A DNA stretch of 59,065 nucleotides from Candidatus Zambryskibacteria bacterium RIFOXYD1_FULL_40_13 (GTDB lineage: Bacteria > Patescibacteriota > Minisyncoccia > Phycocordibacterales > DATDWN01). The stretch covers positions 1-59,065 of the forward strand of contig MHWY01000003.1 of NCBI GenBank assembly GCA_001824295.1, given 5' to 3'. Below are positions 4,022 to 54,324 of this stretch, in pieces (within the stretch, counting starts at the first letter, position 1; each line of letters opens with the position of its first letter). The translations under genes and the position numbers were made by a program. The notes beneath the pieces are model-generated. The model did no database searches. It saw nothing but the letters and a program-made list of their open reading frames with translations, and had not been told where the DNA came from.

Positions 4022-4094
4022 GCGCGATTAGCTCAGTTGGTAGAGCGACTCATTGACGTTGAGTAGGCCACAGGTTCGAGTCCTGTATCGCGCA
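4022..4094 (+). tRNA. tRNA-Val(GAC)
   Basis: GCGCGAT...ATCGCGCA; anticodon arm ACTCA-TTGACGT-TGAGT; GTTCGAG. Confidence 0.95.
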
Positions 4095-4232
4095 CAAAGA
4101 CGAAGTCTTGTGCCAGGACTCGAACAGATTAGCGGTTTACGCTTGCACCAGCAAGTGTCGCTAATCTGCGTTTTTGATTTTGGTTTTTGACGAAAAATCA
4201 AAATCGAAAAAGAGACTCCTGTATCGCGCACA
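4095..4232 (+). repeat. tRNA-trailing structured element, scaffold A (Val unit 1)
   Basis: Antisense T-arm caggactcgaac (4114-4125), core hairpin, GACG-loop hairpin, direct repeat of tRNA 3' end (4217-4232). Confidence 0.85.
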
Positions 4233-4395
4233 ATAAAGCCACCGTAAGGTGGATTTTTTGTGCGTTATAAGTAAAGTCATGTCATGACTTTACGTCAGGA
4301 TTCGAAAACCCTTGATAGTTTTTTGTGAGTCTACGAAACAAAAAACAGAAAAGGTGTACTGACCATGTAATGGTCGAGACTCCTGTATCGCGCAC
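4233..4395 (+). repeat. tRNA-trailing structured element, scaffold B (Val unit 2)
   Basis: tgtgcgttata-[hairpin 4270-4295]-caggattcgaa; core shared with the Lys element; direct repeat tcctgtatcgcgcac (4381-4395). Confidence 0.85.
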
Positions 4396-4487: not shown

Positions 4488-4517
4488 TTGACAAATGACG
4501 CCACTTGGGAATATAAT
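4488..4517 (+). promoter_or_regulatory. Sigma70-type promoter
   Basis: TTGACA-18 nt-TATAAT. Confidence 0.7.
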
Positions 4518-4523
4518 AATAAT

Positions 4524-4759
4524 GTGGGTTGGAGAGGTTCTCGGTCCCGCAGGCAGTCCCAGCACTGCCAGCCTCCTCCTTTGGTCCTCCGGGACCCCTC
4601 CACCCCACTCGTTCGTCGCTTATGCTCACGCATTCGCGACACCCTGTCCTTTCGCGGTCATCAAGGCAATGGCCAAGATGACGCACTTCGTTCCGTGACC
4701 TATCCTCTTAGGTCACACTCGCGCTCTCTCCTCGGCTTCGGCTGAGCGAGAGGGTTTTT
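4524..4759 (+). ncRNA. Candidate structured ncRNA (alternatively a leaderless 58-aa ORF at 4522-4698)
   Basis: GC-rich run of hairpins between a consensus promoter and a terminator hairpin with T-tract (4724-4759). Confidence 0.35.
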
Positions 4760-17991: not shown

Positions 17992-18639
17992 TTATATGTC
18001 AAGGGGCATCCTTGACATACTCGTTTCTTTTAAATAATTTTCTGTCTCACCGACCAGTGAGTTTTTATCTCCAAATATTCCTAGCAGTAAATCTGTAGTG
18101 ACTATTTGTAGACCTCTTTCTTCACTGTAGTCTTTAAAACTACTCCACTTATATTGGCCCGGGTGTTTTACTAGTCCATCTTTTACTGGGTTCATGTGTA
18201 TGTATGCCGAGGCCCACATTAGTTGTGCGTCATCTTCTATTTGCACGGCCTTAAACTGATCTTGAAAGACATGGCCCACCCTTTTGTGTTTTTTGTTTAC
18301 AAACATGGCGTAACTCGTGCAAACCTTTGATAACATTTTTGAAATTGATGTGTTGTTTGTTTGTTCAACTAGTAGATGAAAATGGTTTGGCATTAGGCAA
18401 AAAGCATGAAGTTTGTAGTCACTTTTATTTGTATCCGTAATTCTTATTCTTGAGTAGGGAAGTGAAAGTAAATTATCTTTCTGAATTTCTTTTTCATCAA
18501 ATCCAAGACTTAGGCCAAGTCTAAAAAGAAACGCTCGATAATCTTGCTCGTCAAAGAATATTTTTTCTTTATTGTTTCCACGGTTGTAAATATGAACTAT
18601 TGTGCCGGGACCAAATTCCTTGAAGTCTCTATTTTTCAT
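17992..18639 (-). mobile_element. HUH Y1 transposase, REP-associated (RAYT/TnpA-REP-like)
   Basis: HIYNRGNNKEKIF...DY..F, CLMPNHFHLL (HUH), GHVFQDQFK, YIHMNP (catalytic Tyr), YKWSS. Confidence 0.88.
17997..18017. repeat. REP hairpin at the RAYT 3' end
   Basis: tgtcaaggggcatccttgaca; exact reverse complement of 18650-18670. Confidence 0.85.
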
Positions 18640-18649
18640 TCTTATATTA

Positions 18650-18670
18650 TGTCAAGGATGCCCCTTGACA
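18650..18670. repeat. REP hairpin upstream of the RAYT
   Basis: tgtcaaggatgccccttgaca. Confidence 0.85.
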
Positions 18671-18754
18671 GCAAGGGGTGGTGGGGTTAGTAGTTGTAAT
18701 TGTTTGACACTTTTTTACTACTCATCTACTCTTATGAAAGAGGGGGAAACGACT

Positions 18755-19015
18755 GTGCCGACGATTAAAGACCTGTTGCGACAAGTTGAATCCGGTTCTT
18801 GCGACTCTGGCGCATGTTTTGGAGTGACTGACCCAAGCAGGTTGCGTCCAGTGTTGCACCGGACAATGCCCAAGATTGTTTGTCTTGGTTGTGTCGGTCC
18901 AGAGCACCGGTGTGAGAAAAAGGTCCCGGTTCTTCGTGTCACTTTTCCGAAGCCGGGCCGCACAAGAAAGCGACGGACCTTTGTGAAGTGTGGCTGTTCT
19001 ATGTGCAACAAGTAG
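18755..19015 (+). CDS. Small Cys-rich hypothetical protein (orphan cassette)
   Basis: TTGACA-17-TACTCT (18704-18732), GAGGGG SD, GTG start, 8 Cys, terminator near 19060-19105. Confidence 0.55.
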   Translation: MPTIKDLLRQVESGSCDSGACFGVTDPSRLRPVLHRTMPKIVCLGCVGPEHRCEKKVPVLRVTFPKPGRTRKRRTFVKCGCSMCNK

Positions 19016-19192
19016 TGAGGCTGTAATGCTTGTGACACAACATCGGTCGGAGTTACACTAAGTCCCCAAGACCATTGAAGTCTTCGGGGCTTCTTTGGTT
19101 TTTTGTTAATAACTAGAATGCAGAAAAGATTTTTTCATACTATAATATGTACTAGTATTTACTTTATAAACTTTTAACCTCATAACTCATTC

Positions 19193-25829: not shown

Positions 25830-25889
25830 CTTACACCTCACAATTTACTGTTCGCAGTTATGCTACTACAGACAGATGCTCCTGTCTAA

Positions 25890-26072
25890 TTGTGGGTAAG
25901 GAGGGGTACTCTTTTTTAATAATAAAATGTCGTCACATTTTATTATTAAAAACCCAGATTCACGACACTCGCTGGTGCGAGCGTAAACCGTGAATCTGTT
26001 CGAGCCCCTCACGCAAAGCTTCGCTTTGCTCTTACCCACAAATCAAAAAACCGCTTTCGCGGTTTAGATTTG
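25890..26072 (-). repeat. tRNA-trailing structured element, scaffold A (Leu-TAG)
   Basis: tgtgggtaag-[hairpin]-gaggggctcgaac; core homologous to Val unit 1; direct repeat at 25891-25905. Confidence 0.88.
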
Positions 26073-26154
26073 TGGGTAAGGAGGGACTCGAACCCTCAAG
26101 CCTTACGGCACTAGTTCCTAAGACTAGCGTGTCTACCAATTGCACCACTTACCC
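26073..26154 (-). tRNA. tRNA-Leu(TAG)
   Basis: GGGTAAG...CTTACCCA; CTAGT-CTTAGGA-ACTAG; long variable arm. Confidence 0.95.
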
Positions 26155-26168
26155 AAAAAATACGAAAT

Positions 26169-26316
26169 CAGTAGGGAATCGACCATTACATGGTCAGTAC
26201 ACCTTTTTGTTATTTGTTTCGCTTTGCTCACAAATAACTATCAAAGGTTTTCGATCCCTAACGCAGACTATAACATAGTCTGCTCTGGGCGTAAAAAAAT
26301 CGTAACCGATTTTTTG
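26169..26316 (-). repeat. tRNA-trailing structured element, scaffold B (Lys)
   Basis: cgcccag-[hairpin]-tagggatcgaa; core closely similar to Val unit 2; short repeat ccctactg. Confidence 0.85.
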
Positions 26317-26389
26317 TGCGCCCAGTAGGGATCGAACCTACGACCTTATCCTTAAGAGGGATCTGCTCTACCAGCTGAGCTATGGGCGC
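26317..26389 (-). tRNA. tRNA-Lys(CTT)
   Basis: GCGCCCA...TGGGCGCA; ATCC-CTCTTAA-GGAT. Confidence 0.93.
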
Positions 26390-26544
26390 ATATATGAAAA
26401 AGTACTTTGGTACTATACCACAAACCTTTGTATAAAATAAAGACATAGTAAAAAAATATAATTAATTATGAAAAAGAATACTCCTCCTTGCCCACAAATT
26501 GACAAAGTAACTATATTCTGCTATGATTTGGATAGGAGGCCACG

Positions 26545-26757
26545 ATGCCCGACCCGTTTCTTGTTTTAGCTGCATCTTTCGCAAGCAGTGCCGTCCCGCA
26601 GGCTGATGCGGACGATTCAATGGCCGGGGCGACATCTATCCCCTCGGAGGTCACTGTTGCTCGCCGTCGTGCCGAGCAAGTGACATTTGTCCAAAGTGGA
26701 AGACGAAAAGACTGGTACTGGCTACTGCCAGATGGTACAAAAGTCTTCCATCAGTAA
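26545..26757 (+). CDS. Small hypothetical protein (orphan cassette)
   Basis: TTGACA-17-TATGAT (26499-26527), AGGAGG SD, hairpin after the stop. Confidence 0.6.
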   Translation: MPDPFLVLAASFASSAVPQADADDSMAGATSIPSEVTVARRRAEQVTFVQSGRRKDWYWLLPDGTKVFHQ

Positions 26758-26884
26758 GACACGCCGCCCGCTAGTGAGAACGCCTTGTCGTTTCTCACGG
26801 CGAGGCGGTTTCTCATTTTAAAACCTTGTAGTCAATTTGTTTATATAAAAAAGAGTGGGCGAACTCGAGTCCGCCCACCAATCC

Positions 26885-27040
26885 CTACTGAAGTAAGGTG
26901 CGCAACGTTTCCGTTCGCACCTTGAGCAACGGCTCAAGACTTTCTCTCATCTCTTTCCTGTACGCTCCACCCTTGCGGAGGAGTTGCCAGAATCGTTCTG
27001 GCGTGAGTGTCAGCCGTTGTGTCGTTTTAGCATCTTTCAT
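26885..27040 (-). CDS. 51-aa microprotein MKDAKTTQRL... (not in ORF track)
   Basis: AAGGAG SD; terminator gtgggcg...cgcccac plus T-tract at ~26846-26880. Confidence 0.55.
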   Translation of the reverse strand: MKDAKTTQRLTLTPERFWQLLRKGGAYRKEMRESLEPLLKVRTETLRTLLQ

Positions 27041-27109
27041 CACTAGCTCCTTCCATTAATAATAATACACAAAATATTTGATACTACCAATTTTCAAAAC
27101 AATGTGGGG

Positions 27110-27288
27110 TGGTGCCCGAGGTGGGAATCTTCCGCAACTAAAAATTTTTCGTCAAAAATTTTTGTCGTGTCCGCAGCTCGCGACCCGCGCTGTTGCACGG
27201 GTACCCCGCTTCGCTTTTCGATTCCCAACATAAAGCAATAACATTGCTTTATTCCTCGGACACACAAAACTACCGCATGGTAGTTTTT
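27110..27288 (-). repeat. tRNA-trailing structured element, scaffold C (Leu-TAA)
   Basis: gtgtccgagg-[hairpin]-tgggaatcgaa; GACG hairpin; 20-bp direct repeat including CCA (27110-27129). Confidence 0.85.
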
Positions 27289-27375
27289 TGGTGCCCGAGG
27301 TGGGAATCGAACCCACATGACCTTGCGGTCACAAAATTTTAAGTCTTGCGTGTATACCAATTCCACCACTCGGGC
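27289..27375 (-). tRNA. tRNA-Leu(TAA), CCA encoded
   Basis: GCCCGAG...CTCGGGCACCA; CAAGA-CTTAAAA-TTTTG. Confidence 0.94.
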
Positions 27376-27396
27376 AGTGCCTAAATTACTTTAGGG

Positions 27397-27468
27397 AGGC
27401 GTGGGGCGGAATTGAACCGCCGTATATTTCTTTTGCAGAGAAATGCCTTACCACTTGGCTACCACGCC
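27397..27468 (-). tRNA. tRNA-Cys(GCA)
   Basis: GGCGTGG...CCACGCCT; TTTCT-CTGCAAA-AGAAA; U discriminator. Confidence 0.94.
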
Positions 27469-54002: not shown

Positions 54003-54062
54003 TGGGAGATCGCCCGTCTCGACTCGGCCAAGCTCGCGAGCCGAGGTGGATCTAACGGTAGG
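54003..54062 (+). pseudogene. Duplicated 5' fragment of tRNA-Gln split by a 38-bp hairpin insert
   Basis: tgggagatcg-[54013-54050]-tctaacggtagg equals the first 22 nt of tRNA-Gln. Confidence 0.7.
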
Positions 54063-54080: not shown

Positions 54081-54151
54081 TGGGAGATCGTCTAACGGTA
54101 GGACAGAGGCCTTTGAAGCCTTTAATTGGGGTTCGATTCCCTGTCTCCCAG
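54081..54151 (+). tRNA. tRNA-Gln(TTG)
   Basis: TGGGAGA...TCTCCCAG; GAGGC-CTTTGAA-GCCTT. Confidence 0.93.
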
Positions 54152-54324
54152 CAAAGCAGAGCGAAGCGAAAGCTTTGCTGGGAGAAGCAAATTGAAAATT
54201 TGCGTCAGGGAATCGAACGGATTCGCGGTCTACTGACCGAGTACGGTCTGTCGCGAATCCGCGTTTTCACTTTTGATAAGTGTCGACGAATCAAAAGTGA
54301 AAAAGATTACCCCTGTCTCCCAGC
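54152..54324 (+). repeat. tRNA-trailing structured element, scaffold A (Gln)
   Basis: gctgggaga-[hairpin 54186-54205]-cagggaatcgaac; core; direct repeat at 54311-54324. Confidence 0.88.

Follow-up and report, generated by a model that had tools for sequence, protein, structure and literature searches.

Gene-less units behind tRNA genes of Patescibacteria carry split antisense copies of the tRNA, suggesting a base-pairing choice of insertion sites

We describe a family of small units behind tRNA genes in which an antisense match to the neighbouring tRNA, split into two arms, is set in a scaffold that folds on the tRNA-sense strand. The units bring a tRNA tail of their own, are mosaics of exchangeable parts, and have a patchy distribution that points to horizontal movement. 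Based on comparisons of their sequences, we propose that they are gene-less mobile elements that recombine into tRNA tails by way of their own sense copy of the tail, with the arms, which span the recombination junction, taking part in recognition of the site. We give this proposal about an even chance of being correct. The architecture, the match of the arms to the tRNA, the folding, the mosaicism and the distribution are observed directly; what we infer is that the arms act in targeting, beyond the folding of an RNA alone.

The window, that is, the whole stretch of 59,065 nucleotides analysed here, is one contig (C3) of the genome of Candidatus Zambryskibacteria bacterium RIFOXYD1_FULL_40_13 (728,731 bases in 10 contigs, about 40% G+C, 95.7% complete), for which ARAGORN counts 35 tRNA genes. 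The initial annotation of the window, made from the letters alone, had placed six trailing units behind five tRNA genes. ARAGORN and Rfam agree on all five tRNAs at those positions, and inspection of the sequence recovers all six units in place with the layout that had been described. The tRNA genes and units of the window, and the remaining copies in the genome, are as follows (DR, direct repeat of the tRNA 3' end).

4022..4095, plus strand: tRNA-Val(GAC), by ARAGORN and Rfam; host of two tandem units
4096..4231, plus strand: Val unit 1, short form, A-type core, 119.5 bits with model R1; hairpin 4097-4109, arm 2 4114-4125 (antisense of tRNA 54-65), core 4126-4212, DR 4217-4231
4232..4395, plus strand: Val unit 2, long form, B-type core; terminator-like hairpin ~4235-4259, arm 1 4260-4269, A-stem-GT hairpin 4270-4295, arm 2 4296-4306, core 4307-4375, DR 4376-4395
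25891..26071, minus strand: Leu-TAG unit, long form, A-type core, 131.2 bits with model R1; hairpin flagged as terminator-like 26065-26048, arm 1 26040-26031, hairpin 26030-26011, arm 2 26010-25998, core 25997-25911, DR 25905-25891
26072..26154, minus strand: tRNA-Leu(TAG), by ARAGORN and Rfam
26169..26315, minus strand: Lys-CTT unit, long form, B-type core; arm 1 26290-26285, hairpin 26284-26261, arm 2 26260-26250, core 26249-26181, DR 26180-26169 (truncated, 12 nt)
26316..26389, minus strand: tRNA-Lys(CTT), by ARAGORN and Rfam
27109..27288, minus strand: Leu-TAA unit, long form, A'-type core, 45.9 bits with the A model (a weak match); arm 1 27261-27254, hairpin 27253-27228, arm 2 27227-27217, core 27216-27129, DR 27128-27109 with CCA included
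27289..27375, minus strand: tRNA-Leu(TAA), by ARAGORN and Rfam
54081..54152, plus strand: tRNA-Gln(TTG), by ARAGORN and Rfam
54153..54324, plus strand: Gln-TTG unit, long form, A-type core, 137.5 bits with model R1; first hairpin, then arm 1 54177-54185, hairpin 54186-54205, arm 2 54206-54218, core 54219-54305, short linker with bulged AC 54306-54310, DR 54311-54324
tRNA genes directly trailed by a unit, window: Val-GAC (two units), Leu-TAG, Lys-CTT, Leu-TAA, Gln-TTG
tRNA genes directly trailed by a unit, rest of the genome: Ala, one Met, Gln-CTG, Gly-GCC, Lys-TTT, Ser-CGA, Ile-TAT
Further copies in the genome: C5:1727-1856; C9:31887-31993; C7:17018-17165; C7:21355-21552; C8:8240-8355

The units are about 100-190 nt long, lie directly behind the tRNA gene and have its orientation. 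Read in tRNA sense, a unit consists of an optional terminator-like hairpin, arm 1, a hairpin of the form A-stem-GT, arm 2, the core and the direct repeat. Arm 1 is antisense to the acceptor 3' strand, and arm 2 is antisense to the T-stem 3' strand together with the T loop; on the tRNA their two targets adjoin, with the split between positions 65 and 66, as the initial annotation had read them. The direct repeat runs from the end of the T loop through the T-stem 3' strand to the acceptor 3' strand. On Val unit 1 the initial annotation needs revision. It was said to lack the middle hairpin, when in fact its sole hairpin aligns with the conserved A-stem-GT hairpin. It was also said to lack part of the acceptor arm, and most of arm 1 is indeed missing, but the hairpin that is really absent is the terminator-like first one. 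This short form, without first hairpin and arm 1, is also common in other genomes.

The family is larger than the six units first noted. Twelve of the 35 tRNA genes in the genome are directly followed by a unit, and two further tRNAs are parted from theirs by inserted islands. For tRNA-Ser-ACT, the unit whose repeat and arm 2 match it lies 1.3 kb away with an island in between; for tRNA-Ser-GGA, the matching unit lies across a contig break, beyond a prophage-like region in which we find an amidase and a fragment of a large serine recombinase. Additionally, two units on contig C7 flank a 4.2-kb cargo with DUF4238 and TPR proteins and an ORF of 524 residues. We distinguish at least four core types in this genome (A, A', B and C). 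The 3' portion of the B core is found by itself too, as a module of some 75-80 nt; it is embedded in a C core as well as in partial antisense copies of tRNA-Ile and a second RNA gene. In the same genome, tRNA-Pro is trailed by a plain repeat of its own tail with neither arms nor core, an example of an ordinary att scar.

We next asked how closely the arms match their tRNAs. A test for a one-piece antisense match gave no information because the arms are split, and a two-arm score was used instead (9 nt plus 8 nt with constrained spacing, maximum 17). Scores of at least 15 of 17 were reached by 8 of 34 tRNAs with their own downstream sequence, versus 2 of 1122 pairings of a tRNA with foreign downstream sequence, so the match exceeds chance. 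The earlier observation that the arms change with the tRNA extends to every copy examined. All 20 A-type copies that stand next to a tRNA have an arm 2 that is complementary to tRNA positions 53-65 at 11-13 of 13 positions by Watson-Crick pairing, and three further arm 2 positions in this set form G-U pairs. Arm 2 even follows unusual T loops, for example two different tRNA-Cys loops and TTCAA loops. The final nucleotide of arm 2, opposite position 53, covaries with the closing pair of the core helix P1 (alignment columns 41 and 84), and therefore the target-matched stretch is 54-65. The direct repeat does not include positions 54-56, and the arm therefore matches target sequence to either side of the boundary of the repeat.

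The direct repeat is less well kept. It is intact (13/13) in only 9 of the 20 A-type copies and retains at most 10 of 13 positions in 10 of them, so that mobility may be lacking in many copies. If the repeat departs from the tRNA copy (tRNA-Ala in this genome, and locus L072), the arms agree with the tRNA copy. They are complementary to the gene or precursor sequence and run on into the trailer of the gene, rather than into the CCA of the mature tRNA. The CCA is informative on the origin of the tail. At locus L055 the tRNA ends with an encoded CCA, followed by the unit, and the direct repeat is without CCA and runs into what appears to be the native terminator; locus L041 has the opposite pattern, with a tRNA copy without CCA and a repeat that has it. 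These differences indicate that the element supplies its own tRNA tail. A target duplication filled in after a staggered cut is disfavoured, since it would give identical copies, while recombination of an element-borne tail with the chromosomal tail explains the difference.

The scaffold has a conserved fold. We aligned 32 A-type copies from this genome, its relatives and other Patescibacteria, nearly without gaps, and RNAalifold predicts five helices: the A-stem-GT hairpin, the pairing of arm 2 with the direct repeat, which contains the bulged AC, and three helices of the core, P1, P2 and P3. The A and GU at the junction of the hairpin are conserved. Standard pairs occupy 96.2% of 1565 cells of this alignment, as compared to 38.6-48.9% when the partners are slid by 1-3 columns. 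Both partners have changed at 36 of 49 pairs. Values as high as those observed did not arise in any of 500 shuffles. The covariation that the initial annotation had proposed looking for is thus strong among these 32 copies. Arm 2 and the repeat are both tRNA-derived, so that their pairing is not independent evidence, whereas the other four helices are independent. In these four helices G-U pairs outnumber A-C mismatches by 18 to 2, counts that come from related rows and are not independent events; therefore, the strand that folds is the tRNA-sense strand, as RNA or single-stranded DNA. The lowest-energy fold predicted for a tRNA together with its unit pairs the 3' half of the tRNA with the arms, and the direct repeat then forms the acceptor and T stems together with the 5' strands of the tRNA, so that two mutually exclusive predicted folds exist.

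The cores are shared across tRNAs while the arms follow each one, which bears out the earlier remark that arms vary and cores are common; the cores are interchangeable parts of a modular mosaic. For instance, the Leu-TAG and Lys-TTT units of this genome are 96% identical over P1-P2, 65% over P3, 43% over the hairpin and 29% over the variable part of arm 2. At the Lys-CTT site, this genome (G000) and its relative G017 have the same hairpin and arms with different cores, a B core in G000 and an A core in G017, and the two versions diverge precisely between the last nucleotide of arm 2 and the beginning of the direct repeat. Either scaffolds move between tRNAs and gain new arms, or resident units swap their cores. 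No two of the 13 units compared in this genome have the same first hairpin, and they hence give no sign of recent jumps of whole units within it. If old, tRNA-specific residents exchanged their cores by gene conversion, the outcome could look like retargeting, and the match of the arms could persist with no role in targeting, either through selection on an RNA fold or through template-switch correction of the inverted repeat.

The distribution of the units is patchy. In blastn searches with the Leu-TAG unit, A-type matches are present in 11 of 24 other genomes of the same genus and in 1 of 16 from other families of the order. A covariance model of the A type, built from 30 copies, finds 8 places in this genome but none in an even, phylum-wide sample of 150 genomes, a search with strict filters in which only part of the candidates were scored. 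An exact A-core pattern identifies about 27 genuine copies among 41 matching stretches in species-representative genomes, each copy behind a tRNA tail with matching arms; of its 62 matches in metagenome contigs, 33 are genuine. The genomes that hold A-core copies are titled Saccharibacteria, Paceibacterota, Parcubacteria, Zambryskiibacteriota and Patescibacteria, and the P1-P2 module of the cores is up to about 90% identical across the first four of these. Such near-identical cores in distant lineages point to horizontal spread. The same tRNAs are occupied in distant lineages (Leu-TAA, Lys-TTT, Asn, Cys and Gln-TTG).

Orthologous tRNA genes also provide the empty sites that the initial annotation had proposed looking for: the Leu-TAA site is unoccupied in relatives G007 and G017, and the Leu-TAG site in G017. 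Units stack as well. In the Val array of this genome the A unit adjoins the tRNA and the B unit comes next, and at locus L061 a different B unit adjoins the tRNA with the A unit next; therefore, the tRNA tail and the direct repeat have each served as target. Identical tandem units are seen at L045 and L176, and different units have been inserted independently at the same tRNA tail. Given the patchy presence, the empty sites, the tandems and the near-identical cores in distant lineages, the earlier suggestion of a non-autonomous mobile element with a target-matched segment fits the data, and the earlier interpretation as a whole, which also offered a cis switch, is supported in part.

There is no gene or ORF inside any unit. 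The initial annotation had proposed asking whether larger versions carry a recombinase, HUH or RT gene. No recurrent helper emerged when 396 ORFs from 29 loci were clustered; the clusters consist of syntenic housekeeping genes and of spurious frames across the units. Elsewhere in the genome we find one Xer-type tyrosine recombinase (PF00589), as in 39 of 41 genomes with this one included, two complete large serine recombinases and one fragment, two RAYT-like Y1 transposases that have their own REP hairpins unrelated to the units, and two group-II-like reverse transcriptases that score below family cut-offs. The TnpB Zn-ribbon was not found in this genome, and the DEDD domain of IS110 (PF01548) has no match in it at 95.7% completeness, while control genomes matched. 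Among the 24 other genomes of the genus, the presence of A-type units does not follow that of Y1 or of reverse transcriptase. Each of the two enzymes is present in 4 of the 11 A-positive genomes and missing from 7, and the A-positive genomes without Y1 include some that are 97-100% complete. A serine recombinase is found in 10 of 11 A-positive versus 6 of 13 A-negative genomes, which are kin. We regard this association as a weak lead only, as genomes rich in mobile elements may hold both.

The units also have no counterpart among the known families that we searched. Rfam 15 matches only tRNAs in the whole window at gathering threshold, and again only tRNAs in 25850-27400 at E values up to 10. 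Pattern scans of viral contigs returned 2 matches of the A type and 23 of the A' type, all of them chance, and 56 unrelated matches of a B/D pattern, mostly in one conserved phage coding region. By blastn, no unit was found in phage and plasmid records. A full-text literature search, judged on titles and abstracts, returned no account of such elements. At that level of the literature, the initial impression that this is not a named family holds.

Based on these data, we propose the following route of insertion. The element would enter by recombination between a chromosomal tRNA gene and its own sense copy of the tail, which extends from about position 57/61 to the 3' end. The tRNA would stay intact, being finished by the element's copy, and the displaced original tail would stay downstream as the direct repeat. 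On the tRNA-sense strand, the antisense copy of tRNA 54-73, placed between scaffold parts and split at 65/66 by the conserved hairpin, folds back on the sense copy into a long Y-shaped helix over the junction at 60/61, capped by the exchangeable core. This folded single strand, RNA or single-stranded DNA, may be the module of site recognition and recombination, and its complementarity to the unbroken target would set the place of insertion. The enzyme would act in trans; candidates are a large serine recombinase, the genome's one tyrosine recombinase of Xer type, or recombination of the RecA type once DNA has been taken up. The bulged AC would mark 60/61 on the sense side and the hairpin 65/66 on the antisense side; lying 5 bp apart, the two may resemble staggered cleavage points. 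A bolder version, to which we give perhaps one chance in five, holds that the units are a new kind of nucleic-acid-guided mobile DNA, in which the split arm of a gene-less scaffold of about 150 nt would pair across the future junction in a tRNA gene and direct a host or phage recombinase to it, and the arm would be rewritten from each new tRNA.

An explanation that we consider just as improbable as this bolder version dispenses with a dedicated recombinase. The units would be cassettes acquired by DNA uptake and crossovers at the tRNA gene and the short direct repeat (homology-facilitated insertion), and their arms and cores would serve, for example, RNA stability. An arrangement of tRNA, insert and a 13-20 nt tail copy is the product expected of two crossovers within the tRNA gene, and this account explains the occupation of the same tRNAs in distant lineages, the core replacement at Lys-CTT between arm 2 and the direct repeat, and the absence of a helper gene. 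However, it leaves unexplained the origin of near-identical scaffolds for more than 15 different tRNAs and the conservation of an antisense copy that reaches past the direct repeat, and the homology on the right-hand side is very short. Spread without a recombinase is partly compatible with our proposal of elements that recombine through their own tail.

Somewhat less probable again is that the units are cis-acting trailer RNAs, whose arms pair with the tRNA 3' half or with the direct repeat as a decoy and thereby control termination, 3' processing or the amount of tRNA. The shared orientation directly behind the tRNA, the folding of the sense strand, the two exclusive predicted folds, and arms that complement the gene or precursor instead of the CCA-tailed mature tRNA would all fit a regulator of this sort. 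However, only 12-14 of 35 tRNAs have a unit and the orthologous tRNAs of close relatives do without, a patchiness that argues against a function in host maturation. The units stack in tandem and nest, the repeat that such a switch requires is degraded in 10 of 20 copies, and the long forms have a terminator-like hairpin ahead of the arms. The near-identical cores in distant lineages, which suggest horizontal spread, also speak against this reading.

It is quite unlikely that the units are decayed remnants of integrase islands or prophages, with cores derived from attP-flanking DNA and inverted copies as by-products. Integration of this sort classically leaves repeats of the tRNA 3' end, larger islands and a prophage carrying a large serine recombinase are indeed present at the same tRNAs (for example, Ser-ACT and Ser-GGA), and the C7 pair encloses its 4.2-kb cargo. 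Nevertheless, at several loci the island lies between the tRNA and an already complete unit and hence arrived later, the units are not found on viral contigs or in phage and plasmid records, and the compensatory changes in four helices reflect selection on the fold, which is unexpected in decaying DNA. The plain tRNA-Pro scar, with neither arms nor core, likewise counts against remnants. Least probable of all, to the point that we would be surprised by it, is a trans-acting guide RNA that directs a modification or cleavage enzyme to tRNA 65/66 in the manner of H/ACA or C/D guides: two antisense arms around a hairpin with a contiguous target strand and conserved junction nucleotides A and GU recall such guides, but the arms abut and leave no target nucleotide unpaired between them, ACA and C/D boxes are missing, Rfam gives no match, the complementarity continues into the gene trailer rather than CCA, and the short forms are without arm 1.

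We also compared the proposed mobile units with known systems. Integrative elements at tRNA 3' ends are typically islands and phages with a tyrosine integrase that use T-loop sublocations and restore the tRNA with the element's tail. As in these, the insert is bounded by a direct repeat of the tRNA 3' end, displaced and starting from the T loop, the tRNA is kept intact, and units accrete in tandem. In contrast to them, the units have no tyrosine integrase gene, are only 100-190 nt long and contain a covarying multi-helix core; the split internal antisense copy of the target and its scaffold set them apart from ordinary tRNA-site elements. SCCmec and the gene-less pseudo-SCC elements are mobilised by large serine recombinases, and they too form non-autonomous stacks at the 3' end of a conserved gene, with direct repeats derived from that end and inverted repeats beside them. 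However, they differ from the units in size by two orders of magnitude, and the inverted copy of the units is at most 90 nt from its partner and interrupted by a hairpin.

Systems with internal complements to a target provide a second set of parallels. IS200/IS605 elements, PATE and REP-RAYT share with the units strand-specific folding and an internal complement to the left flank, which is the target, and IS200/IS605 derivatives are likewise small, hairpin-rich and non-autonomous. However, their guide is 4-5 nt with no target repeat, as compared to arms of 12-23 nt and direct repeats of 12-20 nt in the units, and the absence of Y1 from 7 of the 11 A-positive relatives indicates that this transposase is dispensable here. 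Class C group II introns lie behind terminators and select their site by EBS-IBS pairing with upstream sequence. The units share both the internal complement to upstream sequence and the position behind a terminator hairpin, but they have no domain V or intron core by Rfam and are far too small, and reverse transcriptase is missing from 7 of the 11 A-positive genomes. In the attC sites of integrons and the attP of CTX phage, an imperfect hairpin of one strand with bulges mimics a duplex recombination site, and there, as here, a structured single strand varies in sequence while its structure is kept; unlike integrons, the units have no integron integrase in this genome, and their target is a tRNA gene, not attI or dif. 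MITEs have terminal inverted repeats taken from a parent IS and a target duplication of short, fixed length; in the units, the inverted pair is the tRNA tail and its antisense copy, which differs with each tRNA, and the repeat varies in length and can differ between its two copies (for example, in CCA).

The bridge RNA of IS110 is about 150-250 nt long, and like the units it has variable target-matched segments around a stem-loop in a scaffold; the guide segments of one loop pair with opposite strands of the target (PMC11208160), whereas the two arms of the units both complement the tRNA-sense strand, along which they adjoin. Additionally, IS110 leaves only a dinucleotide repeat while the units leave a repeat of the tRNA tail, and there is no DEDD recombinase here.

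Three further ideas were set aside. The idea that arms and direct repeat form a tRNA mimic, an acceptor/T minihelix, is weakened by the pairing of arm 1 with the discriminator and beyond and by short forms without arm 1. We reject a primer-binding site, as the complementarity follows the gene trailer and not CCA, and head-to-head ligation at a palindromic T loop, as arm 2 passes the centre of the loop.

On a conservative reading, our findings uncover a widespread and strongly structured element family that had been missed in Patescibacteria genomes and that accounts for much of the intergenic DNA near their tRNAs. For annotation, the family gives rise to pseudo-tRNA tails and false small ORFs, and it is a concrete system for the study of DNA exchange across deep lineages of tiny symbiotic bacteria. 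If the arms do guide insertion, the units would be a compact natural integration module, programmed by base pairs and directed to safe sites in tRNA tails that come to no harm, and one that works in organisms with minimal genomes; programmable site choice would then exist outside CRISPR, OMEGA and IS110. The arrangement of these sequences suggests a base-pairing choice of insertion sites of a kind hitherto undescribed.

The window carries a RAYT-like Y1 transposase gene of 215 residues that scores above cut-off for PF01797 and below cut-off for NF047646, and inverted REP-like hairpins flank it on both sides (near 17997 and 18650). About 17 hairpins related to this pair are dispersed genome-wide, and a second RAYT-like gene, on contig C2, has a hairpin variant of its own. 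The RAYT-like genes adjoin two of the unusually G+C-rich, noncoding-looking blocks that contrast with the rest of the genome (40% G+C); a search of these blocks against Rfam returned no matches at the gathering threshold. Two reverse transcriptase genes are also found within the 729-kb genome. Their nearest family is the group II intron reverse transcriptase, with scores far below its cut-off.

Window 17992-18639, minus strand: RAYT-like Y1 transposase gene
Window ~4500-4750, window ~18640-19100 and stretch L032 ~1990-2620: G+C-rich blocks
L076, C1:70151-70750, and L077, C2:53195-53728: reverse transcriptase genes

ARAGORN called a "tRNA-Stop (tta)" in three stretches (L002, L046 and L224). 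Because the anticodon loop of these calls is identical to that of the genome's own tRNA-Lys(TTT), they look like a register artefact rather than a suppressor tRNA.

Behind tRNA-Pro, the last ~35 nucleotides of the tRNA are duplicated 3' of a hairpin, with neither arms nor core; in contrast to the units, this is an ordinary attachment-site scar. At tRNA-Ser(GGA), the serine-recombinase reading frame of a prophage-like region extends into the tRNA, the far junction holds a conserved C-terminal coding fragment of 46 residues, and a second copy of this fragment lies at the tRNA-Ser(ACT) island. This arrangement suggests an integrase gene that extends across the site at which it attaches, so that integration would break it in two.

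L021, C8:75240-75312: plain tRNA-Pro tail duplicate
L014, C5:71379-72227, with L015, C9:31985-32190: prophage-like region integrated at tRNA-Ser(GGA)
L013, C5:1850-1993: second copy of the coding fragment, tRNA-Ser(ACT) island

The hairpin and 3' part of the B core, one of the unit core types, also occur as a free-standing module of ~75-80 nt. Its settings are hairpin loops or the interior of partial antisense RNA-gene copies, and in the tRNA-Ile copy it replaces the four anticodon-loop nucleotides.

Free-standing B-core module: L018, C4:66800-66885
L019, C4:45924-46005
L020, C1:8254-8335
L021, C8:72631-72715
L023, inside the unit behind one tRNA-Met

A further insert interrupts copies of tRNA-Gln. 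Immediately upstream of tRNA-Gln(TTG) lies a partial copy of the tRNA whose D loop is split by ~38 nt, and on contig C5 the same insert breaks a near-complete second copy behind tRNA-Gln(CTG).

Window ~54003-54062: partial tRNA-Gln copy (5' part)

This ~38-nt insert may represent a further small module that targets tRNA genes for insertion.
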